Assembly (NCBI GenBank): GCA_036758585.1
Contig: DAIOWH010000095.1
Coordinates: 1 to 23,794, forward strand
DNA: 23,794 bases
From: Planctomycetia bacterium
GTDB lineage: Bacteria > Planctomycetota > Planctomycetia > JALXBF01 > JBGPMX01
Direction: 5' to 3'
Of this stretch, positions 14,580-23,794 are shown in pieces; the stretch's first letter is position 1; each line of letters starts with the position of its first letter. Under the pieces are notes generated by a model. It saw only the letters and a list, made by a program, of their open reading frames with translations. It was not told the origin of the DNA and made no database searches. The position numbers and the translations under genes were made by a program.

Positions 14580-14604
14580 TCGCTCGGAGTGTCGGCGTTG
14601 ATTT

Positions 14605-14640
14605 CGAGGCGGCCTGCCGTCACAATGCCGCCTCGTTTGC
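14605..14640 (+). terminator. Putative intrinsic terminator (9-bp stem cgaggcggc/gccgcctcg, 13-nt loop, then TTTGC)
   Basis: Read directly, downstream of the CBS gene. The U-tract is short, so this is weak. Confidence 0.3.
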
Positions 14641-14678
14641 TCGGTGACTGTGCCTTGGTCGATACCGTCGGAGTACGA

Positions 14679-15497
14679 ATGAACGTCAAACGACTCACGC
14701 TCGAAGAGATCGACGACCTGAAGCGACGCTGGACTGAGAAGTATGTCGAGGTGGACGCGAGCCGGCCGGAGCTGAAACGGTTCGCCGGTCGGGCCGGCCG
14801 TGTGATCACGGTGAACATGAGCGGCAAGGCGTTGGTGCAGTTCGACGATGCGGAAGGTTGCGGCTGGGGGCGCTACGACATCGGCCTGCCGTTCCTGACG
14901 CAGGTTGCCGCGCCCGCGCCGGCGGCGAAGAAGCACGAGGCGGCCGAGAAGCCAAAGGCGGAGGCTGCGGCGTCGAGCGGCGCCCCGACCGCGAAGAAGT
15001 CGCCCATCGAACTCATGAAGGAGAAGGCCGCAGCCAAGAAGGCCGCCGAAGCGGGCGCGCCCGCCGAGACGCTGCCGGCCGGGCCGGTCAAGAAATCACC
15101 CATCGAGTTGATGCGCGAAAAGGCCGCGGCAAAGGCGGCGAGTGAAGGCGCGCCGGCCGCCGAACCGGCGACGACGCCGACGGCCAAGAAGTCGCCGATC
15201 GAGTTGATGCGAGAGAAAGCTGCGGCGAAGGTGGCAGGTAGCGGCACGCCCGCCGCCGCTGAACCGGCGACCGCGCCGACCGCCAAGAAATCTCCGATCG
15301 AACTGATGCGCGAGAAAGCTGCGGCTAAGAAGGCCGCCGAGGCCGGTTCCACCGAACCCGCAGGGACCTCAGCCAGCCCACCCGATGCCTCCTCGTCGCC
15401 ACCGGCTGCGACACAAAAGGAAGGTGGACTCTCCAAGATCGAGATGATCCGACAAGCGGCAGCCAAGAAAAAGGCCGAGGAGCAGGGCAAGGCCTGA
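14679..15497 (+). CDS. Hypothetical protein with ~100-aa N-terminal domain and 4-5 tandem ~32-aa Ala/Lys/Pro-rich repeats containing 'KKSPIELMREKAAAK'
   Basis: Met at 14679 (MNVKRLTLEEIDDLKRRW) with GGAG 8 nt upstream. The repeat is visible at both protein and DNA level (period ~96-99 nt from ~14990 to 15340). Confidence 0.65.
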   Translation: MNVKRLTLEEIDDLKRRWTEKYVEVDASRPELKRFAGRAGRVITVNMSGKALVQFDDAEGCGWGRYDIGLPFLTQVAAPAPAAKKHEAAEKPKAEAAASSGAPTAKKSPIELMKEKAAAKKAAEAGAPAETLPAGPVKKSPIELMREKAAAKAASEGAPAAEPATTPTAKKSPIELMREKAAAKVAGSGTPAAAEPATAPTAKKSPIELMREKAAAKKAAEAGSTEPAGTSASPPDASSSPPAATQKEGGLSKIEMIRQAAAKKKAEEQGKA

Positions 15498-15589: not shown

Positions 15590-16651
15590 TCAGAGCCCCA
15601 TCGTGGGGGCCTGCGTCAGATACATCACGCGGGGCACGCCGGCCCGAAGCAGCGACTGGAGATCGATCTCGATCTTCGAACTGCGGCCGGTCGCGCTGCC
15701 CAGCAAGAGTTCCAGGAAGTCGAGCGGCCGTTTGTATTCGATCACCTGTGCATCGCTAATCTTGGCCAAGCTCTTGGCGGCGTCGATCGCGTCCTCGATA
15801 TAGCCGATCTCATCCACCAGCCCGCTCGCCTTGGCCTCGCGCGATGTGTAGACGTCGCCGGTGGCGAGTTTCTTCACTTCGTCCGCCGTCATGCCTCGCC
15901 CCTCGCTGACGACCTCGATGAACCGCTCGAAGGCGTCGTCGATCACCACCTGCCAACGTTCGCGCTCGGCCGGCGTCATCTCGCGAAACGGCGATCCGGC
16001 GTCTTTGAACGGGCCGGTCTTGATCACTTCCATACGGACCTTGAAGTCCTCCATCAGCCCGGCCACGTTCGGGAAGCTGGCGATGACGCCGATCGAGCCG
16101 GTCATCGTGGTTCGTTCGGCGAAGATGCGGTTCGCGGGGGCCGAGACGTAGTAACCGCCCGATGCGGCCAGCCCCTGCATCGACACGACGATCGGTTTCG
16201 TCTCGCCCGGCCCGCGGCAAACCTGTTGCACCTTGCGGTGAATGTGGTCGCTCGAGAAGATCGTGCCGCCCGGCGAATCGACCTTGAGCACAATCGCCTT
16301 CACCGCGTCGTCCTCTTCGGCGGCCTTGAGCTGCCGAATCACATGACGTTCGGTGACGTCCATGATCATGTCTTCGACCGAGACGATCGCGACCTTGTTC
16401 GGCGAGTTCTCATCGCCGCTGTGAAACTCCTCTTCGAGCCAAACGTCGGTCGTGGCGATGGACACGCTGCTGGCCAGCAGGTAGAGGCCGCCGACCAGCA
16501 GAACCGCGAACACGCCGAGCACGGCGAACAGGATCATCAGCCCGCGCAGCAGTCCGCTGCCTCGCCGTGGCGGGGGCGCGGCGGCGTAGGTCGGGTGAGC
16601 GGGCGATAGCACTTGAGGCTGAGCGTACACTGGGTTGTTGGGCTCGTTCAT
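15590..16651 (-). CDS. sppA: Signal peptide peptidase SppA (S49 family, 36K type)
   Basis: N-terminal TM helix, VDSPGGT and the Ser-containing MQGLAASGGYY motif of S49 peptidases. Start chosen at ATG 16651 (AAGGA 8 nt upstream). The alternatives are TTG 16666 or ATG 16657. Confidence 0.8.
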   Translation of the reverse strand: MNEPNNPVYAQPQVLSPAHPTYAAAPPPRRGSGLLRGLMILFAVLGVFAVLLVGGLYLLASSVSIATTDVWLEEEFHSGDENSPNKVAIVSVEDMIMDVTERHVIRQLKAAEEDDAVKAIVLKVDSPGGTIFSSDHIHRKVQQVCRGPGETKPIVVSMQGLAASGGYYVSAPANRIFAERTTMTGSIGVIASFPNVAGLMEDFKVRMEVIKTGPFKDAGSPFREMTPAERERWQVVIDDAFERFIEVVSEGRGMTADEVKKLATGDVYTSREAKASGLVDEIGYIEDAIDAAKSLAKISDAQVIEYKRPLDFLELLLGSATGRSSKIEIDLQSLLRAGVPRVMYLTQAPTMGL

Positions 16652-16756
16652 GGTCATTCCTTGCAAAGCATCACAGGAGCGAGAACCGATTCCGCTTCGA
16701 CGGGTTCATTCTACTCGCGACCCTCGATCGAGACGTAGAGCAAGCGGTTCGATGTA

Positions 16757-17254
16757 TTACTGGCCGCCGTCGCGCGGTTCGGGCGTTGCGGTCACGACGG
16801 GCGTCCCGTAGGGCACGGGCGGGTCGTGCGGTCGCGCTGGTTCGATCGCGAAGATCAGCCATCGCCCTCGCTCGCGGCGCAGCCGGTACGCCTGAAGTTC
16901 CCATGGTCGTTTTTCGTAGACGCGGTCTACCAGCACATAGACCTCGTCCGGGCCGCGCGACTCGGTCTTGAGCAGGGCCTGGCCCTTGATTTCGGCGGCG
17001 GCCCGCCGCAGTTCGGCGCCGAACTCGCCACCGCGCCGAGACTCGACGTCGCGTCGCGCGGCGTCGCGCGGCTCGCCCGTCAGGCACGCGAGGTATGCAG
17101 CCACGTCGCCCTGCTGCATCGCCTGCAGCAGTTGGTCAAGCACGGCCTCGGGAGCGTCGGTCGACCCCGGCGCACGCATGATCGCCAGCGGCGCGATCGC
17201 ACCGATCAGCACCGCCGTCGCCGCTCCCGCCACCAACTTGGTCCTGCCAACCAT
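16757..17254 (-). CDS. Hypothetical exported/membrane-anchored protein (166 aa)
   Basis: ATG at 17254 with GAGGGA upstream. The N-terminal hydrophobic segment MVGRTKLVAGAATAVLIGAIAPLAI suggests a signal or anchor. It lies 17 nt downstream of the methyltransferase gene on the same strand. No family recognised. Confidence 0.5.
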   Translation of the reverse strand: MVGRTKLVAGAATAVLIGAIAPLAIMRAPGSTDAPEAVLDQLLQAMQQGDVAAYLACLTGEPRDAARRDVESRRGGEFGAELRRAAAEIKGQALLKTESRGPDEVYVLVDRVYEKRPWELQAYRLRRERGRWLIFAIEPARPHDPPVPYGTPVVTATPEPRDGGQ

Positions 17255-17270: not shown

Positions 17271-18086
17271 TCACTGCCGCCGCGACTTGGCGAGCCGCAG
17301 CGCCGCACGAGCCTCGCGCTCGGCCAACTCCGCTCGCACCCGCCACGCTTCGAGCTGCGCCACGTACTGTCGCATCCAGGGCGTCAGATTCACGGAATCG
17401 ACGTACAGAGCCAATTCGGCGTTCGACTCCTTGAGGCGTCGGGCGCACAAGATGCCGAGTCCGTGGAACCCCGGAAGTTGCACCAGGTCGATCGGTTCGC
17501 TCGCTTCGCGCACGAAATCCTCGACCGCCGTGAGCACGCCGTTGCGCGGCCCGTGTTCGATCGTCGCGTTGCACAGGCCCGGATTGAATCCGCCCCGTTC
17601 GACAAGCTGCGTGGAATCCGGCCGCATGCCCTTCTTCTGATACGGATTGCGGTGCTCGGCCGGTATCGACGTCGGGTCGTAGTACAGGTCGCGTCGACCG
17701 TAGGGCCAGCCGATGTCGTGACAGAAGACGAGCGGAAACGGCCGACCGGCCGCGGTGCTCGACCGCTCGATCAGCTTCAGTTCATGATAGACCGAGTACC
17801 AGTTGTGATCTCCGTCGACCAGCGCGGCGTCGACGCTTTCGATTTGCGGCAGCGCGTCGAGGCTCTTGGCCCGATGCACGATCAATCGCCCGCCGAACTC
17901 CGTCTGCCAGCCGGCGACGTCGAACTTGGGCGCGGGATCGATCGCGTGCAGAACTGCGCCCAAGCGGCGGCACAATTCCGCGAGCCGCCGCGTGCTCTTG
18001 CCCTCCTCCGAACCGATCTCGACCACGCACGTCGGCCGCAGTCGAACGAGCAGCGGTTCGATGATCGTTTCCCAATACGGGTACAT
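17271..18086 (-). CDS. Class I SAM-dependent methyltransferase (Methyltransf_24/CmcI-like)
   Basis: CVVEIGSEEGKST (glycine-rich SAM motif I) and LVDGDHNWYSV (acidic motif). It is 22 nt downstream of hflC on the same strand. Confidence 0.7.
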   Translation of the reverse strand: MYPYWETIIEPLLVRLRPTCVVEIGSEEGKSTRRLAELCRRLGAVLHAIDPAPKFDVAGWQTEFGGRLIVHRAKSLDALPQIESVDAALVDGDHNWYSVYHELKLIERSSTAAGRPFPLVFCHDIGWPYGRRDLYYDPTSIPAEHRNPYQKKGMRPDSTQLVERGGFNPGLCNATIEHGPRNGVLTAVEDFVREASEPIDLVQLPGFHGLGILCARRLKESNAELALYVDSVNLTPWMRQYVAQLEAWRVRAELAEREARAALRLAKSRRQ

Positions 18087-18108: not shown

Positions 18109-19011
18109 TTACGGCTGATCGCGCATGATGGTCAGGTCGACGTCCTGGCCGCGGTCGATGATCAGCTTCGCGCGAAAGCGGGGCACGATCTCGGCGATGG
18201 TTTCGAGGTACATGCGCGCGGCGGCGACCGCCGGCGCCTTGCGATACTCGTAGAGCAAGGCGACGAACCGTTCGGCCTCGCTGCGCGCCAGGTCGACGGC
18301 CCGCGCGTGCTCGGCCCGCGCGCGGTCGGTCCGCTGTTGCGACTCGCTGCGGGCCTGGGCCAGCTTCTCGTTCGCGTAGGTCTTGGCCTCCAGCACCAGT
18401 CGCTCGCGATCGCTGCGGGCCGACGCGGCGCGAGTGAATGCGTCGACGACCTGCGGCGGCGGCGAGAGTTCCGTAAGGCTGACCGAGCGGACCTCGACGC
18501 CCATCTCATACCGCCTCAGATTCTGCTCCAGCGTGTCCTTGATCAAAATCGCCAGTGCATCCTTGCCGCTGGTCAGCACCGAGTCGATGGACTTGCCCGC
18601 CAGCGTCGTCGACGCCGCCGACTCGGCCGCGCGCGTAATGACCTCGGCCGGATCGGCCAGCGAGAAGAGGTATCGCGTCGGGTCGGTGATGGTGTACTGC
18701 ACCGTTGCTTCGACGATCACCAGGTTCTGGTCGCCCGTCAGGAACTGGGCCAGCGACGGCGCGAGCGACGGACCGATCGCGCGATCGGTCGCGCGGTCGC
18801 CGATCTTCACGGTCTTGGTCTCGCTCGGCTTCACCAGATCGACGCGATCGAGGCCCCAGGGCAGCCCGATGTGCAGGCCCGGTTCGGCATGCTCGTCGAT
18901 GACCGCGCCGAAGCGGCGCACGACCGCTCGCTCGTCCGTGCCGACTGTGTAGATGCCGGTCGCAAGGTAGGCGATCGCACCGGCGATCACTGCCGCGACG
19001 AACCATTTCAT
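18109..19011 (-). CDS. hflC: SPFH/band-7 protein, HflC-like (short N-terminus, one TM, periplasmic SPFH domain, C-terminal coiled coil)
   Basis: MKWFVAAVIAGAIAYLATGIY TM helix, then RAVVRRFGAV...GLHIGLPWGLDRV SPFH start. GGAGG RBS. The ATG overlaps the hflK stop (ATGA at 19008-19011). Confidence 0.85.
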   Translation of the reverse strand: MKWFVAAVIAGAIAYLATGIYTVGTDERAVVRRFGAVIDEHAEPGLHIGLPWGLDRVDLVKPSETKTVKIGDRATDRAIGPSLAPSLAQFLTGDQNLVIVEATVQYTITDPTRYLFSLADPAEVITRAAESAASTTLAGKSIDSVLTSGKDALAILIKDTLEQNLRRYEMGVEVRSVSLTELSPPPQVVDAFTRAASARSDRERLVLEAKTYANEKLAQARSESQQRTDRARAEHARAVDLARSEAERFVALLYEYRKAPAVAAARMYLETIAEIVPRFRAKLIIDRGQDVDLTIMRDQP

Positions 19012-20339
19012 GGCTTGCCCTCCGTGTTGCCGCCGCCGGGCGGGCCGCTGCTTGCCGGGCCGGCGCCGTTGGCGGCCGGCGCGGACTGTTTGGCCGGCGG
19101 CTTGGTCGAGGTCGCGGCGGGATGGCCGTCGGTCAGGAGTCGCAGCAGGTTCGATTCGGACGAGAGCACGATGGTGGTCTTTTCGTTCAGGATCGCGCGA
19201 TAGGTTTCGAGCGTCTTCAGGAACTGGTAGAACTCGGGGTCCTGACTGTGCGCGGCGTTGGCGATGCGCATGGCCTGGGCCTCGCCCTCGCCGCGGATGC
19301 GTTCGGCGTCGGCGGCCGCCTTGGCCAGTATCTCGGCGCGCTCGGTGTCGGCAAGGCTGCGTATCTTGTCGGCCTCACTCTTGCCCTCGTCGCGATACTT
19401 CTTGGCGACGCCCTGGCGCTCGGCCCGAATCATCTCGAAGATCGCCGGCTTCACCGCTTCGGGATGATTGAACCGCTTGATCCGCACGTCCACGATCTCG
19501 ATGCCGAACTGATCGAGTGCATCGCGGCGAATCTGCTCGGTCAGCTCGCGCATCAGCCGATCAAGCCCGATGTCCTTGGGGTCAAGGCTGACGAACTCAG
19601 CGAGACTCATTTCTCCGACCCGGGCCTTGAGCATCGAGTCGATGCGTTCGCGCAGCCGGTCTTGAGCGGCCGGGATGCTGCCGACCGAGAGCACGAAACG
19701 CAACACGCCCTTTTTGAAATCGGCGTTGGCCTTCGCGGTCGGGATGCGCCAGCAGACGTACCAATCGACCGAGAGCGGCGGGCCGCCGAGACTGGCTCGC
19801 GACCGTGCGTCGCCCGCCGCCTGGCCGATCTGCGGCCGATCGCGCGTGAGCATGGTGCTGCCGGGCGGGCTGTACATTTGCAGCCGCCGATCCAGCCGCC
19901 GCACGCTCTGATACGGCAGCTTGAAACCCAACCCCGGCTCGACGCACAACCGGACCGGCCTGCCGAATTCCAGGACGTAGACATACTCGGTCTGGTCCAC
20001 AAAGAAACACGCCGACCAAGCGACGAGGCCGACGAGACCCGCCGTCACGCATGTCACAACCGCCCGCTTGATCGAGCCGCCTCGGCCGGGGCCGTGCACG
20101 TGGGAGTGGTCGTGGTGATGGTGGTCGTGACCGCCGTCGTGCGAATGGCTATGTGCATGGTCGTGATCGTGATCGTGGTCATGATCGTGATGGCCGTGAC
20201 CATGGTCGTGTGCGTGGCTGTGCGGGTGGCTGTGTCCGTGCGAATGGCCATGATTGTGGTCATGGTTGTGGCTGTGCCCATGAGATTCGCTCGGGGCGTG
20301 CGAGTGATCGTGCTCGTGCTTGTCGGATTCGTTGTGCAT
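19008..20339 (-). CDS. hflK: SPFH/band-7 protein, HflK-like, with ~80-aa His/Asp/Ser-rich N-terminal cytoplasmic tail
   Basis: Residues 1-82 are HxHx repeats (HEHDHSHAPSESHGHSHNHDHNHGHSHGHSHPHSHAHDHGHGHHDHDHDHDHDHAHSHSHDGGHDHHHHDHSHVH). A TM helix follows (AVVTCVTAGLVGLVAWSACFF), then the SPFH domain (YVYVLEFGRPV...EPGLGFKLPY) and a Lys/Ala/Glu-rich coiled coil. Confidence 0.85.
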   Translation of the reverse strand: MHNESDKHEHDHSHAPSESHGHSHNHDHNHGHSHGHSHPHSHAHDHGHGHHDHDHDHDHDHAHSHSHDGGHDHHHHDHSHVHGPGRGGSIKRAVVTCVTAGLVGLVAWSACFFVDQTEYVYVLEFGRPVRLCVEPGLGFKLPYQSVRRLDRRLQMYSPPGSTMLTRDRPQIGQAAGDARSRASLGGPPLSVDWYVCWRIPTAKANADFKKGVLRFVLSVGSIPAAQDRLRERIDSMLKARVGEMSLAEFVSLDPKDIGLDRLMRELTEQIRRDALDQFGIEIVDVRIKRFNHPEAVKPAIFEMIRAERQGVAKKYRDEGKSEADKIRSLADTERAEILAKAAADAERIRGEGEAQAMRIANAAHSQDPEFYQFLKTLETYRAILNEKTTIVLSSESNLLRLLTDGHPAATSTKPPAKQSAPAANGAGPASSGPPGGGNTEGKP

Positions 20340-20363
20340 GCGATTCTCAGTAGGCGCGTTGAA

Positions 20364-23300
20364 CTACTGATCCAGTTCCATCGGCGGCGTCGCGACCGGT
20401 GCGGCGGCGGCGGGGAGCCGGATGTTGAACTTATCGGGGTCGGCCAGGAAGAGCTGCCGGCGACCGGCGGCGGCCGGATCGAGCACCAGCTTGTCCTTGT
20501 CGGCGAGTGTGGCCTCGATCGCGTTCAGGTAGAGCCGCAGGCTGGAGATCGCCGGCCAATCGGCGTAGGCGGCGCGTCGCATCGAAAACGCCGCCGCATC
20601 GCCCTCGGCCCGGTACGTCTGATCGGCCGCCCGCGCCTTGGCCGCGGCCAGTTCGCTCGACGCCTCGCCGCTCAGGTCCGGTTTCAGTTCGGCCCAGACC
20701 GCGTCCGTCACCTGGCCATCGTGCCGCGCGAGTCGTTCGGCGGCGGCGGCGCCGGCGACCGTGATGATTTGCTGCTGAAAGTAAGCGTCGGCCTCCTTCT
20801 GCATGCGCTCACGGTCCTTGAACGCGCTCGAAACGTCGTGGAAGGCGTCGACGACTTGCAGCGGCGGGTGCACATCCTGCAGCGCGACGGCACGGACGTC
20901 GACGCCGAGTCGGTAGTCATCGGTGCGTTGTTGCAGTAGCGACCGGGCCTCGCGCTCGATCTCGGCGCGCTCAGCGGTCAGGATATTCCAGAACGCTCGC
21001 CGCGCGGCCAGTTCGCGCAGCACGCCCTCGGCCAGCGACTTGACGACCGAGTCGGGATCGCGCACCTCGAAGAGATATCGCACGATGTCGGCGTCGCCGC
21101 GCCGCACGCTGAACTGCACCACTGCGTTCAGCTCGAGCAGGTTCTCGTCGCCCGTGAAGAGCAGCGACTCGTCCTCGACCCGTTCGATCAGTCCCTCGCG
21201 ATGCGTGCTGGTCCACTCGATCGGCCGCGCCCCTTGGAACGACTCGTCGGTCCGCGTGCGAAACCCCAGTTCGGCCACGCGCACGCGGTCGGGCGCGAAT
21301 CGCTCGACCGTCTCCCACGGCCGCGGCAGCCGGAAGTGCAGGCCCGGCTCGAGCGCGGCGATGAACCCGCCGCAACGTTTCACGACGCCGACCTCGTCGA
21401 GGTCCACTACCGTGACGCCCATCGCCCAGTAGCCGATCACGGCCGCAACCGCCGCCCACGTCGCGGCCGCTCGCGGTTTGCGCACGGCCCAACGGACGGG
21501 CTGTAGCAGCGGATCGAGCGCGGCGCCTGCGCGGCGGGCCAGTTCGCACGCCTGCGATTCGAACCGACCGGCCGCCGATCGTTCCCAGCGCTCGAACCAG
21601 AGCAGGCGCATCGCATTGACCAGCACGAGAAACGAACCGATCTGGTGGTAGATCGCCGCGCCGACCGGGCCCAGCCGTTCCGCCGCAGCGAGCACGATCG
21701 CGACGCCGTTGACGACGAACGCGAACAGCACGATGTTCTGCCGAATCACCCGCACGGTCGCGCGGCTGAGCCGCACCAGGCCGGGCAGCGGGGCGAGCGG
21801 GTCGCCCATCAGGACCAAATCGCCCGCCTCGGCCGCGATGTCGCTGCCCACGCCGCCGAGCGCCAGCCCGACGTCGGCCGATGCCAGCGCGGGAGCGTCG
21901 TTCACGCCGTCGCCGATCATGGCGATGGGAACGCGAGAGGATAGAGGATAGAGGATGGAGGATGGAGGATGGAGGATGGAGGATTGCGCAGAAGCGGTCG
22001 GAGTGTCGTTGCGCGATCCTCGATCCTCTATCCTCGATCCTCTACCATCAACCCTCCTCTTGATCCACTCGGCCTTCTCTTGCGGCAGCAACTCGGCGTG
22101 GAACTCGTCGATGCCGACGGCGCAAGCGACGGCCTCGGCGGCCGGCCGGCGGTCGCCCGTGAGTAGGACGATCTCATCGATGCCGAGGTGTCGCAGCTCG
22201 CCAAGCACGTCGACGGCACCGGCCCGGATCGTGTCGCGCGCGCCGACGAGGCCGATGACGCGGCCGTCGAGCGCGACGGCGAGCGGCGTCTGGCCGGCCG
22301 CGTCGAGTCGCGCGAAGGCCGCGGTAACCTCGTCATCCAGCGTGACGCCCTGCTGCTCAAGCAACCGTCGGTTGCCGACGCAAATCAGAGATTGCTGATT
22401 GCTGATCGCCGATTGCTGATCGCTGACGGTTGACGTCTGACCGCTCGTCCGCGCGACAACTCCTGCGCCGGGGTGGGCCGTGAACTCATCGACGGAGGGC
22501 AGCACGAGTGCGCGTTTGGCGGCCTCGGCGACGATCAAACGACCCAACAGATGTTCGCTACGCGACTCGGCAGCCGCGGCGATCGCGAGCACCTCGTCGG
22601 CCGAGCGCTCGGCGAGCGGGATGACGTCGCCGAGTTGCAGCTTGCCTTCGGTCAATGTGCCGGTCTTGTCAAAGGCGATCGCGCGGACGTGGGCAAGGCG
22701 CTCGAGTGCGGCACCGCCCTTGATCAGGACGCCGCGCCGGGCCAGCCACGCCAACGCGGCCATGATTGCGGCGGGGGTCGCCAGAATCAGCGCGCACGGG
22801 CACGCGACGACCAGCACCGCGAGCGTCGGCATCCAATCGGCGCTCGTCAGGTCCGACCAAGGAGTACCCCAGGTCGTGTAGACCATCGTGCCGGCGGCAC
22901 TCGCGAGCACGACCGGCAGGAACACGCGGGCGAGCCGGTCGGCGATGCGTTCGATCGGCGCCTTGTTCTCTTGCGCCTCGGCGACCAGCTCGATCACCTG
23001 AGCGAGCGTTGTGTCCTCGCCGACCTTGTCGGCCCGCACTTCGAGCGCGCCGAACTGGTTCAGCGTGCCGGCGAAGACCATATCGCCCGCGGCCTTGTCC
23101 ACCGGCACACTCTCGCCAGTAAGCGTGCTCTGGTCCACGGCCGACTGGCCGCCGAGCACCGAGCCGTCGATCGGGACTCGTTCGCCGGGCCGCACCACCA
23201 CGCGCTCGCCGACGTTCAGTTCCGTGATGGCCACGTCGACCTCGTGGCCGTCGCGCAGCACGTGGGCCACGCGCGGTTGCAGTTCCAGGATGCGGCTCAT

Positions 23301-23693
23301 CTCGCGATGCGTGCGGGCGAACGTGATCGCTTCGAGCGATTCGCCGACCATCGCGATGAAGACGACTTCGGCGCCGACCCAGTACTCGCCCAGGATCAGC
23401 GACGCGAGCAGCGCGATGGCCAGCGCGAGGTCCGCTCCCACGTTGCCATCGAACAGCGCAAGCAGCGCCCCGTAGACGATCCGCGCCCCGCCGATCACGG
23501 CCGCGGCGAACGCGAGGTCGAGCCAGCCGAACGGCCGATCTGGCCCGGTGTAACCGAACGCCGCGAGAACGAGGTGTGCGCCGATCAGCACGCCGAGCAG
23601 GATCGTCAGCGCGTACAGTCCCCGAAACGACGGCAGTCGCAGTGCGTCTTCCGGGTCTATCTTGTGCTGCATGTGCATCGGACGGGTACCCAC
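20364..23693 (-). CDS. Fusion protein: CPC-type P1B heavy-metal-translocating P-type ATPase (aa 1-~700, no N-terminal HMA domain) + linker with extra TM helix + C-terminal HflK/C-like SPFH domain (last ~347 aa)
   Basis: One uninterrupted 1109-codon frame. ATPase motifs: TGESVPV (actuator), VVACPCALILATP (TM6 CPC), FDKTGTLT (phosphorylation site), MIGDGVNDAPALA (hinge). The junction is near nt 21596 (…NAMRLLW|FERWERS…). A TM helix AAATWAAVAAVIGYWAMGV follows, then the SPFH domain (GVVKRCGGFIAALEPGLHFRLP…QVVDAFHDVSSAFKDRER…). The stop lies 24 nt upstream of hflK. Confidence 0.8.
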   Translation of the reverse strand: MGTRPMHMQHKIDPEDALRLPSFRGLYALTILLGVLIGAHLVLAAFGYTGPDRPFGWLDLAFAAAVIGGARIVYGALLALFDGNVGADLALAIALLASLILGEYWVGAEVVFIAMVGESLEAITFARTHREMSRILELQPRVAHVLRDGHEVDVAITELNVGERVVVRPGERVPIDGSVLGGQSAVDQSTLTGESVPVDKAAGDMVFAGTLNQFGALEVRADKVGEDTTLAQVIELVAEAQENKAPIERIADRLARVFLPVVLASAAGTMVYTTWGTPWSDLTSADWMPTLAVLVVACPCALILATPAAIMAALAWLARRGVLIKGGAALERLAHVRAIAFDKTGTLTEGKLQLGDVIPLAERSADEVLAIAAAAESRSEHLLGRLIVAEAAKRALVLPSVDEFTAHPGAGVVARTSGQTSTVSDQQSAISNQQSLICVGNRRLLEQQGVTLDDEVTAAFARLDAAGQTPLAVALDGRVIGLVGARDTIRAGAVDVLGELRHLGIDEIVLLTGDRRPAAEAVACAVGIDEFHAELLPQEKAEWIKRRVDGRGSRIEDRGSRNDTPTASAQSSILHPPSSILYPLSSRVPIAMIGDGVNDAPALASADVGLALGGVGSDIAAEAGDLVLMGDPLAPLPGLVRLSRATVRVIRQNIVLFAFVVNGVAIVLAAAERLGPVGAAIYHQIGSFLVLVNAMRLLWFERWERSAAGRFESQACELARRAGAALDPLLQPVRWAVRKPRAAATWAAVAAVIGYWAMGVTVVDLDEVGVVKRCGGFIAALEPGLHFRLPRPWETVERFAPDRVRVAELGFRTRTDESFQGARPIEWTSTHREGLIERVEDESLLFTGDENLLELNAVVQFSVRRGDADIVRYLFEVRDPDSVVKSLAEGVLRELAARRAFWNILTAERAEIEREARSLLQQRTDDYRLGVDVRAVALQDVHPPLQVVDAFHDVSSAFKDRERMQKEADAYFQQQIITVAGAAAAERLARHDGQVTDAVWAELKPDLSGEASSELAAAKARAADQTYRAEGDAAAFSMRRAAYADWPAISSLRLYLNAIEATLADKDKLVLDPAAAGRRQLFLADPDKFNIRLPAAAAPVATPPMELDQ
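21937..22056. repeat. 120-nt palindromic heptamer-repeat element inside the ATPase CDS (7 x 'gaggatN', 29-nt spacer, 6 x inverted 'NatcctC')
   Basis: Read directly. It is in-frame: it encodes GRGSRIEDRGSRNDTPTASAQSSILHPPSSILYPLSS between the LPQEKAEWIKRRVDG and VPIAMIGDGVNDAP blocks, which are contiguous in ordinary P1B ATPases. Confidence 0.75.
22390..22424. repeat. Heptanucleotide tandem repeat (gattgct gattgct gatcgcc gattgct gatcgct) inside the ATPase CDS
   Basis: Read directly. It encodes the low-complexity VSDQQSAISNQQS insert in the nucleotide-binding domain (…GAGVVARTSGQTST[VSDQQSAISNQQS]LICVGNRRLL…). Confidence 0.55.
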
Positions 23694-23794
23694 AGCGGCA
23701 GTTCCAAGCTAGGGGCGACCGTGGGTGAAGTCAAGCTGAAGAAAAGGTTCTTCCGGGTCTGGAGTGGCTGATTGATCGCGGTTGGTGTGTGCGG

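Follow-up and report, generated by a model that had tools for sequence, protein, structure and literature searches.

A His/Asp-rich tail on an HflC-type protein encoded beside a P1B metal pump fused to an HflK-type SPFH domain in a planctomycete

What is the role of a long run of histidine and aspartate at the start of a membrane scaffold protein whose gene adjoins that of a metal pump? The question is raised by a locus of a Planctomycetia bacterium (assembly GCA_036758585.1, contig DAIOWH010000095.1, positions 1 to 23,794), the window being this whole stretch of 23,794 nucleotides (nt). On its minus strand, a 443-residue HflC-type protein of the SPFH family carries a His/Asp-rich N-terminal tail, and the neighbouring gene encodes a P1B-type metal ATPase. 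Two observations go beyond an earlier sequence-only reading of this DNA: the pump carries an SPFH domain of its own by fusion, and the subunit that bears the His tract changes from one related module to another. With these observations, the tail is probably an optional metal-binding accessory arm that acts in trans within one pump-plus-scaffold assembly.

The 443-residue open reading frame (ORF; 19008..20339, minus strand) begins with MHNESDKHEHDHSHAPSESHGHSHNHDHNHGHSHGHSHPHSHAHDHGHGHHDHDHDHDHDHAHSHSHDGGHDHHHHDHSHVHGPGRGG. Its tail, recognized by composition, AlphaFold2 modelling and comparison with homologs, spans residues 1-88 (20076..20339, minus) and contains 38 His, 12 Asp, 3 Glu, 11 Ser, 11 Gly and no Cys. 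The His-rich stretch announced by the sequence-only reading at 20094-20339 corresponds to residues 1-82, and both its coordinates and its composition hold. The remaining 355 residues of the protein include only 3 His, and the enrichment of the tail has a binomial probability of about 1e-54 at the protein's own His frequency. Over all reading frames of the window, His density reaches 13 of 25 residues in the tail versus 6-7 of 25 elsewhere, there in antisense frames; the ORF on the opposite strand (19122..20939) is a mere antisense reading of the tail-protein gene.

A composition of this kind could result from the collapse of reads in a cac/gac repeat, a danger that the same reading had pointed out. 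Such a collapse is unlikely because three recorded contigs encode the identical protein and the repeats are imperfect: the tail DNA is a mix of CAC, CAT, GAC, GAT, AGC and GGC codons in which the 6- and 12-nt arrays are short (Tandem Repeats Finder scores 36-51). An assembly or low-complexity artefact is also rejected on the orthologs, which at 40-70% identity possess differing His/Asp tracts of 20-70 residues. What homologs keep is the tail as a feature, and not its sequence. In the AlphaFold2 model, built from a 42-sequence alignment, residues 1-85 have a predicted local distance difference test score (pLDDT) below 50 and no secondary structure, and the rest of the protein is modelled confidently. 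The tail is predicted to be disordered and cytoplasmic.

Beyond the tail, the model places one membrane helix (residues 87-110, about 20010-20081, pLDDT >95), then the strands of the SPFH domain, a long coiled-coil helix of about 70 residues (294-366) and a disordered C-terminus rich in Pro, Ala and Gly. Pfam recognizes one Band_7/SPFH domain (3e-18). The protein had been labelled an HflK paralog, and this label proved wrong. Its score with TIGR01932 (HflC) is 151.7 bits vs a cutoff of 134.4, aligned over residues 265-402, and it reaches only 46.6 bits with TIGR01933 (hflK). Its best solved relative by sequence in the PDB is E. coli HflC (5e-31 vs 1e-9 for HflK), and the top Foldseek matches are the E. 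coli HflC chains 7vhq_G (1.2e-20) and 7wi3_C; an HflK identity is rejected by sequence and by fold. The C-terminal tract (residues 405-443; 19008-19125, minus), rich in Pro, Ala, Gly and Ser and reading ...PAATSTKPPAKQSAPAANGAGPASSGPPGGGNTEGKP, is a second disordered segment which would be periplasmic by topology. Similar C-terminal tails exist in planctomycete homologs, and Bryobacterales homologs are without them.

The neighbouring pump gene lies 24 nt upstream, and the sequence-only reading was right to see there a P1B ATPase that starts directly with transmembrane (TM) helices and has no HMA domain: Pfam finds none, and only about 14 residues, MHMQHKIDPEDALR, precede the first helix. What went unnoticed in that first reading is the fused SPFH domain. 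The gene (20364..23678, minus; 1104 residues from the ATG at 23678), assigned from Pfam, NCBIfam, PDB and hydropathy, encodes a pump core (~21579-23678), an extra membrane helix (~21414-21470) and an SPFH domain with coiled coil (~20364-21410). Pfam matches are E1-E2_ATPase (4.9e-56), Hydrolase (HAD; 7.8e-23) and Band_7 (7e-17, residues 762-969 of the 1109-residue ORF), and NCBIfam returns both TIGR01525 (533 bits) and the hflK model TIGR01933 (153.9 bits). The C-terminal ~400 residues are thus those of an HflK-type SPFH protein, matching E. coli HflK in the PDB at 1e-16.

Hydropathy resolves helices MA, MB and M1-M5 and a polar M6, the HQxGS helix that aligns to TM6 of sCoaT, followed by a ninth helix between pump and SPFH domain (residues 737-755, numbered from MHMQHK). 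The catalytic motifs are intact in the window pump and its family: in an alignment of 117 fused sequences, DKTGT and TGE (of the TGES motif) are conserved at 100% and GDGxNDAP at >=96%. In the SxHP motif, His is kept at 99% and Pro at 50%, the window pump having Leu in place of the latter.

Some minor features of the pump sequence can be recorded here. The mechanical ORF call begins at GTG 23693; the ATG at 23678 (MHMQHKIDPED...) is conserved in six close homologs (P0121-P0126) and agrees with the public gene call. A short His motif opens the conserved N-terminus: Pirellulales-type sequences have MHMQH or MHMQY there, Isosphaerales MHREY. Two lineage-variable in-frame insertions (21936-22043 and 22390-22424, minus), located in surface loops of the pump N and P domains, are made up of repeated 7-nt units. 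In one of them, GAGGATA/GAGGATG units form the two 28-nt arms of a hairpin, 93% complementary around a 52-nt loop and read as RGSRIEDRGSR...SSILHPPSSILYPLSS; the other is made of GATTGCT/GATCGCC units read as DQQSAISNQQS. Lengths at both sites differ among close homologs, and P0122, P0125 and P0126 carry a QQSAISNQ-type repeat at the other site.

The third SPFH gene encodes a free HflK-type protein of 300 residues (18109..19011, minus; TIGR01933 191.7 bits vs a cutoff of 159.4; PDB HflK 2.5e-39). Its start overlaps the stop of the HflC-type gene (ATGA), which it directly follows in nearly all related loci. HflK-type and HflC-type proteins form alternating rings in E. coli. Judging by family membership, co-assembly of the HflC-type, free HflK-type and pump-fused HflK-type proteins into one ring or cage is the most likely arrangement here, and the tail protein and the pump would almost certainly share one SPFH assembly since the pump is covalently joined to an HflK-type domain and the HflC- and HflK-type genes come next. 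The termini of P-type ATPases are cytoplasmic, and the extra helix after M6 would therefore bring the fused SPFH domain to the periplasmic side, as in E. coli HflK/C. With the tail standing before a single helix flanked on its N side by Arg/Lys residues, and with the extra helix of the fusion, all tails would be cytoplasmic and all SPFH domains periplasmic.

A probable mechanism follows the E. coli precedent. In a single HflK/C-like ring, HflC-type subunits would alternate with HflK-type subunits, some of which carry the pump, and the free HflK-type paralog would set the number of pumps per ring. The SPFH domains would stand on the periplasmic side with the pump tethered to the ring. The His arms of the HflC-type subunits would line the cytoplasmic rim within nanometres of the cytoplasmic domains of the pump, because each pump-HflK fusion would have HflC-type neighbours. 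There, the arm may concentrate, buffer or hand over a borderline divalent metal (Zn, Co or Ni likeliest), or it may regulate the pump. In doing so from another polypeptide, it would do the same job in trans as a His-rich N-terminal pump extension does in cis in other lineages.

Is this association of pump, scaffold and tail a particularity of one planctomycete? A scan of one genome per species yielded 535 relatives, and the best 80 of these 535 loci were inspected; the query was a tail-less alignment, and the low-complexity tract therefore could not bias the scan. The best 80 loci belong to Planctomycetota (Pirellulales, Isosphaeraceae including Singulisphaera acidiphila and Tundrisphaera lichenicola, and Schlesneria), Acidobacteriota (Bryobacterales, Terriglobia, Blastocatellia), Armatimonadota, Abditibacteriales, Verrucomicrobiales and Gammaproteobacteria (Nevskia soli). 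With neighbours tabulated by BLASTP of the window proteins against all ORFs of the best loci, the fusion was found directly upstream of the HflC-type gene in nearly every locus with enough upstream DNA, and directly downstream of it in three Schlesneria loci. The order of pump-SPFH fusion, HflC-type, HflK-type, small protein and sometimes peptidase recurs in every inspected context (L001-L004, L088). Five loci (L014, L024, L046, L068, L074) have no pump within 10 kb, and none of them has a His-rich tail. A His tract in orthologs without a metal-transporter neighbour would have spoken against a partnership with the pump; no such case arose, because every His-tailed homolog with enough upstream DNA adjoins a pump fusion.

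More than 230 different fused proteins, 950-1170 residues in length, came out of protein searches, and the conserved module is represented by several hundred distinct proteins from Planctomycetota, Acidobacteriota, Armatimonadota, Verrucomicrobiota and Gammaproteobacteria. The parts of this system (P1B pump, HflK/C scaffold, His-rich arm, partner-assisted pumps) are all of known kinds, and the fused proteins are already public under generic names: 'cation-translocating P-type ATPase family protein', 'cadmium-translocating P-type ATPase', even 'FtsH protease activity modulator HflK'. In the literature searched, no description was found of a P-type ATPase-SPFH/HflK fusion or of a His-tailed HflC. 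No natural split of pump and SPFH domain was found among the inspected loci. An apparently unfused pump (P0242, 684 residues) was rejected as such, coming from a frameshift-ridden long-read assembly with its SPFH part in fragments, and the split ORFs of L020, L022, L037, L038, L040, L047 and others are broken inside the pump and not at the domain boundary. A tblastn search of a plasmid collection gave no fused homolog; its best matches were ordinary P1B pumps at 35-40% identity, the top-identity one belonging to a CsoR-DUF1490-CtpV-type locus on a Mycobacterium plasmid. On the eukaryotic side, a protein of 1331 residues in a eukaryotic protein set (P0201; eukprot g8285.t1) has the same ATPase-SPFH architecture at 44% identity and could reflect contamination or transfer.

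If pump and scaffold proteins form one complex served by the tract, the tract is expected on any one of the polypeptides, and on one at a time. Its position was assessed in the N-terminal regions of the three membrane proteins, with a threshold of >=6 His in 25 residues, over the 54 modules of the species-level set in which the N-termini of pump and HflC-type protein are both readable. The tract sits on the HflC-type tail in 14 of them (for example the window's clade, L010 and Bryobacterales). It sits on the pump's own N-terminus in 16, for example in Isosphaerales, where MHREYxPxxM is followed by e.g. HGHDHHHHHDHHHHHHHHHDHDHDH, and as a long His/Pro tract in an Armatimonadota metagenome-assembled genome. 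One module carries it on the HflK-type tail (Verrucomicrobiales, L072), 23 have none, and not one of the 54 has it on two subunits. This absence of double placement has a one-sided Fisher p of 0.003, uncorrected for phylogeny. All three positions would be cytoplasmic N-termini. On a neighbour-joining tree of HflC-type cores, at least 8 gains or losses of the tract are needed, tailed clades being interspersed with tail-less ones. Shorter motifs below the threshold also occur, for example DHDHDHDELGEHVHASPGCPTCG in L011 and L019 (DHDHDHD-type).

The sequence-only reading had proposed that the His tail acts in trans as the metal-capture or buffering domain of the pump within a shared SPFH assembly. 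The shared assembly and the action in trans are supported by the fusion of the pump to an HflK-type domain and by the presence of the tract on the pump itself in 16 of 54 modules, never on both; this placement on one subunit at a time lends the action in trans its strongest support. The idea of an essential capture domain does not survive: since 23 of 54 modules do without any tract, the tract is an accessory and not the essential metal-capture domain of the pump.

The same distribution bears on a more trivial explanation, in which slippage of replication in CAY/GAY codons would have expanded a functionally neutral low-complexity tract, or the assembly would have produced it as an artefact. 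Close relatives differ strongly in the length and sequence of the tract, its DNA includes short 6- and 12-nt repeat arrays, and many lineages dispense with it altogether, all of which a neutral expansion would predict. Slippage does not readily account for a tract that was gained repeatedly and always at the cytoplasmic N-terminus of a component of a metal-pump module, never on two subunits, that always alternates His with Asp, Glu, Ser or Gly, and that leaves the other 355 residues of the protein with 3 His; as for an artefact, the three contigs and the imperfect repeats stand against it. We regard this explanation as very improbable.

Which metal would the arm and the pump share? The window pump has the features of the P1B type, namely Cys-Pro-x in TM4 and two extra N-terminal helices for a total of 8 TM. 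In the 117 sequences, TM4 reads VACPCALxLATP (CPC 100%), TM5 QNIxLFAFxxN (Asn 100%) and TM6 GPxxAAxxHQxxS...N (His 100%, Gln 93%, Ser 99%). P1B-2 pumps (Zn/Cd/Pb, ZntA-type) are recognized by a TM5 Lys and a TM6 Asp-x-Gly, P1B-1 pumps (Cu+, CopA-type) by Tyr-Asn in TM5 and Met-x-x-Ser-Ser in TM6, and P1B-4 pumps (Co/Zn/Ni/Fe, CoaT/CzcP-type) by Ser-Pro-Cys in TM4 and His-Glu-Gly-x-Thr in TM6. P1B-2 is rejected on the invariant TM5 Asn without Lys and the TM6 H-Q-x-x-S; TIGR01512 passes its cutoff (436.6 vs 313.5) but is a broad subfamily model. P1B-1 is rejected on a TM5 Asn without preceding Tyr (FAFxxN), on the lack of Met-x-x-Ser-Ser in TM6 and on a TIGR01511 score of 379.5, below the cutoff of 397. 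P1B-4 is rejected since TM4 has CPC and not SPC. The subclassification called for by the sequence-only reading thus upholds the P1B type, and each of P1B-1, P1B-2 and P1B-4 fails at least one signature.

Partial resemblances point in a narrower direction. For TM5-6, the best PDB match is the P1B-4 pump sCoaT (7qbz, 8.7e-21), whose HEGST aligns column for column with HQIGS, a resemblance limited to this part; whole-pump scores are alike for the solved structures (CopA 336, sCoaT 310, ZntA 291 bits). A 2026 review gives N-X18-H-N-X-(S/T) between TM5 and TM6 as the hallmark of the poorly known P1B-6 pumps, to which the Zn exporter CtpC adds CPC (PMC13460109). Taking the hallmark from that description, the signature of the fused family, N-X20-H-Q-X-(S/G)-S with CPC, is near the P1B-6/CtpC hallmark and not identical to it. 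The combination of a tract of His and Asp devoid of Cys, a CPC motif and ligands of the His/Gln/Ser kind suggests that the substrate is a borderline divalent metal, Zn, Co or Ni being likeliest and Cu possible.

The closest functional parallel comes from mycobacteria. In M. tuberculosis, the P1B pump CtpC is encoded together with PacL1, a protein that crosses the membrane once. Glu/Ala repeats in the cytosolic part of PacL1 are required for pump stability, and a DLHDHDH motif at its C-terminus binds Zn and becomes necessary at high Zn only (PMC9374683, PMC13460109). PacL and Ctp proteins assemble into mobile clusters of high molecular weight called 'effluxosomes', and PacL1 was likened by its authors to flotillin-like scaffolds, the mycobacterial flotillin itself not being required (PMC9374683, PMC13460109). 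Like PacL1-CtpC, PacL2-CtpG and PacL3-CtpV, the window module associates a P1B pump with an operon-encoded single-pass partner on which a cytosolic His/Asp motif is optional, a comparison made here from sequence (31 of 54 modules with a tract, 23 without). The pump signatures also resemble each other, CtpC having CPC in TM4 and N...H-N-x-(S/T), and the window family N...H-Q-x-(S/G)-S.

The differences are as instructive. PacL is a small DUF1490 protein without SPFH domain that serves as scaffold and chaperone, whereas the scaffold role in the window module is proposed for HflK/C-type SPFH proteins, one of them fused to the pump. The PacL motif is C-terminal and 7 residues long, the window tract N-terminal and about 80 residues long; and PacL-Ctp foci are flotillin-independent, unlike a module whose scaffold is itself an SPFH set with one member covalently attached to the pump. 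Since no module protein has a DUF1490 match in Pfam, the module is an analogue of PacL-Ctp and not a member. With respect to the tract, CopB-type P1B N-terminal extensions, Hpn, HypB, UreE and CDF loops offer comparable Cys-free disordered stretches of His and Asp/Glu, and HypB proteins (P0119, P0120) were even drawn into the homology-search matches by the tail. Those tracts are carried by transporters or soluble proteins, whereas the window tract belongs to a membrane scaffold subunit distinct from the pump, and in other lineages is found on the N-terminus of the pump instead.

The scaffold itself is best compared with E. coli HflK/HflC-FtsH (7vhp, 7wi3, 9cz1). HflK- and HflC-type genes stand side by side in both, these proteins are the best sequence and fold matches, and both sets share an N-terminal helix, a periplasmic SPFH domain, a long coiled coil and a conserved C-terminal segment. 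However, E. coli has two HflK/C paralogs and the window module three; the window HflC-type protein has an 88-residue His tail where E. coli HflC has few residues, and the free HflK-type copy is without the long N-terminal extension of E. coli HflK. As one HflK-type copy is the C-terminal half of the pump, the likely client of the window scaffold is the pump and not, or not only, FtsH. Carrying this further, we tentatively propose, with some doubt, a 'client-in-cage' arrangement, an SPFH ring of one HflC-type and two HflK-type paralogs, one of these being the C-terminal half of a P1B pump. An SPFH microdomain would permanently enclose or carry the pump, whose exit side would be covered by a periplasmic chamber and whose entry side would be crowned by as many as twelve His-rich arms. 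Such an arm would be portable, having been moved by evolution between pump, HflC-type and HflK-type subunits.

Other SPFH systems provide looser parallels. In SPFH-NfeD pairs (archaeal PH1511/PH1510; E. coli QmcA-YbbJ, 8z5g), an SPFH scaffold is encoded with a ClpP/S49-class peptidase-like partner, and in stomatin-transporter complexes (e.g. AQP1-stomatin, 9zd2) SPFH rings associate with channels or transporters; unlike the latter, the transporter client of the window module is covalently attached to the scaffold. The window does encode a peptidase of the SppA/S49 serine class (353-358 residues; 15590..16666, minus; Peptidase_S49 1.7e-48, TIGR00706 223 bits). It differs from the NfeD partners in being SppA-like, with an NfeD1b_N match of 32.5 bits under the cutoff of 40 and without the NfeD C-terminal OB-fold domain, and it ends the operon only in the window's planctomycete clade (same position in L003, L006 and L088).

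This peptidase raises the question whether the SPFH proteins are mainly devoted to quality control, recruiting or restraining FtsH or the adjacent SppA/NfeD-like peptidase for the stability of the pump, with the His arm as a metal sensor gating proteolysis. The SPFH proteins are of the HflK and HflC types by sequence and fold, the family that cages FtsH, and by family match the HflC-type protein may have a role in FtsH modulation; an S49 peptidase with an NfeD1b_N-like region closes the operon in the window's clade. Pumps depend on PacL proteins for their stability, and for other metal transporters a shielding from degradation has been discussed (PMC13460109). Yet neither the window nor the inspected loci contain an ftsH gene, most modules outside one clade lack the peptidase, and a quality-control role leaves unexplained why the tract can sit on the pump itself. 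We hold a primary function of this kind to be quite unlikely.

A second alternative keeps the assembly and reverses its direction. Under scarcity of Zn (or Cu), the same complex would serve metal uptake as a homolog of the P. aeruginosa locus PA2439-PA2435 (hflK, hflC, SPFH, hmtA), with the His arm as a cytoplasmic acceptor or sink. The P. aeruginosa cluster PA2434-PA2439 encodes the P1B ATPase HmtA and proteins annotated as HflC-family, HflC and HflK (PMC4542158); it is co-regulated and its first promoter is bound by Zur (PMC4542158, PMC11761036, PMC8531726). The hmtA cluster, with one P1B ATPase and three HflK/C-family genes, is expressed 5- to 14-fold more strongly when znuA is mutated (PMC4542158), Zn depletion increases the amounts of its proteins (PMC11761036), the PA2439 promoter is the one bound by Zur (PMC8531726), and overexpression of HmtA raises cellular Zn and Cu (reviewed in PMC10393844). 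The likeness to the window holds by gene content only, one P1B ATPase and three SPFH proteins if the fused domain is counted as the third; in P. aeruginosa the genes are separate (no fusion reported), in another order, and linked to Zn limitation and import. A TonB-dependent-receptor-like outer-membrane protein also precedes the pump in the same gene string in L084 and L085. In these loci, one gammaproteobacterial and the other a related long-read locus, this protein (L084:672-3917, L085:134-3397; CarboxypepD_reg plus OMP_b-brl_4) heads a same-strand string into the pump, with a gap of 22 nt before the pump in L084, and such a receptor neighbour would fit uptake.

Several points make uptake less convincing. 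Import by HmtA was deduced from overexpression phenotypes, and a review calls for its confirmation (PMC10393844). The tie of the window pump to HmtA rests on literature-level gene content, protein searches, plasmid tblastn and genome scan having given no Pseudomonas match. The TonB-receptor neighbour is found in few loci only, and no Zur-like palindrome is conserved upstream. To our knowledge, the biochemically characterised P1B pumps are exporters, and export rather than import would be expected of the window pump too. Uptake remains, in our opinion, an unlikely alternative to an accessory arm serving an exporter.

The arm acting in trans has nevertheless to face some evidence that weighs against it. 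The tract cannot be essential, being absent from 23 of 54 modules. The exclusivity of its placement is inflated by shared ancestry, and p = 0.003 overstates the evidence because relatives are not independent: only about 3 + 3 + 1 independent clades are involved. The substrate is a guess, for no characterised subclass agrees with the pump in its TM5 and TM6 residues (N, HQxxS). Next to the operon, in the window and inspected loci, neither a metal-responsive regulator nor a conserved operator was found. Lastly, the P. aeruginosa hmtA cluster, the only studied one of the same gene content, is induced by Zn limitation and its pump is a reported importer, which would reverse the direction of transport. 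The rest of the window consists of unrelated housekeeping genes with no metal-related neighbour, and no regulator, operator or metal-related neighbour deciding between the readings was found in it.

It has been difficult to say how SPFH cages (HflK/C, stomatin, prohibitin, flotillin) serve the membrane proteins that they enclose, partly because their clients are not easily identified. In the present module the gene itself names the client, for the metal pump and an HflK-type domain are one protein, with HflC- and HflK-type partners to match, and the relation between scaffold and client becomes directly testable. The case carries the idea of a scaffolded pump with a His arm, known from mycobacterial PacL-Ctp, to phyla abundant in the environment and to another family of scaffolds. 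In moving the tract from subunit to subunit, nature has performed a rare 'domain-swap experiment', which argues that the arm works equally in cis and in trans, and the module may explain the three unexplained hflK/C-like genes of the P. aeruginosa hmtA locus. If the client-in-cage arrangement were true, it would be the first SPFH assembly with its client specified by covalent fusion, and an SPFH-based counterpart of the effluxosome widespread in soil and peat Planctomycetota and Acidobacteriota.

The operon includes further genes. A small fourth component of 165 residues (16757..17254, minus) is composed of an N-terminal membrane helix, an NTF2/SnoaL-like domain and a C-terminal (V/I)PYGTPV; its gene follows the HflK-type gene in most loci of several phyla. 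The protein matches no Pfam family above threshold, and its fold assignment, from a 12-sequence profile, is weak (SnoaL_2 2.4e-3, DUF4878, PDB 3i0y 4e-4). From Planctomycetota to Gammaproteobacteria, the conservation of the (V/I)PYGTPV motif is striking. In the window, the HflK-type and small genes are separated by a Methyltransf_24 gene (17271..18086, minus; Pfam 1.3e-14) that is absent at the same position in L002, L003, L088 and all other loci. It looks like a local insertion in the operon, outside the conserved module, and recent, since even a relative at 69% identity (L088) and all the other loci are without it.

Upstream of the operon, a block TTGACT-17 nt-TAGCTT (23706..23734, minus) is kept in three orthologous upstream regions whose proteins share 69-87% identity, and may be the operon promoter. 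A consensus promoter scan found nothing and missed this block because its second hexamer matches at 3 of 6 positions only. The alignment of the three upstream regions has no conserved palindromic operator, Zur-like or other, and no regulator gene is adjacent in L002, L003, L087 and L088. An inverted repeat GAAGAA-N4-TTCTTC upstream of the window's gene is not conserved.

Two further observations concern the surroundings of the module. A protein of about 1000 residues, with a beta-propeller-like N-terminal half and a weak DUF3604 match in its C-terminal half, lies beside the pump/SPFH module in 26 of 84 loci from three phyla (e.g. L034:12524-15598, L048:3951-6965, L008:12585-15512). It immediately precedes the module in Acidobacteriota and Gammaproteobacteria, immediately follows it in Isosphaerales and is encoded on the other strand in Pirellulales, and may be a further functional partner; the window stops 100 nt upstream of the pump, and the protein may be encoded beyond that edge. 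Finally, an ORF at 14589-15497 on the plus strand, without Pfam or NCBIfam match and reported as 272 residues by the public gene call, encodes an Ala/Lys/Pro-rich protein with four copies of KKSPIELM(R/K)EKAAAK.

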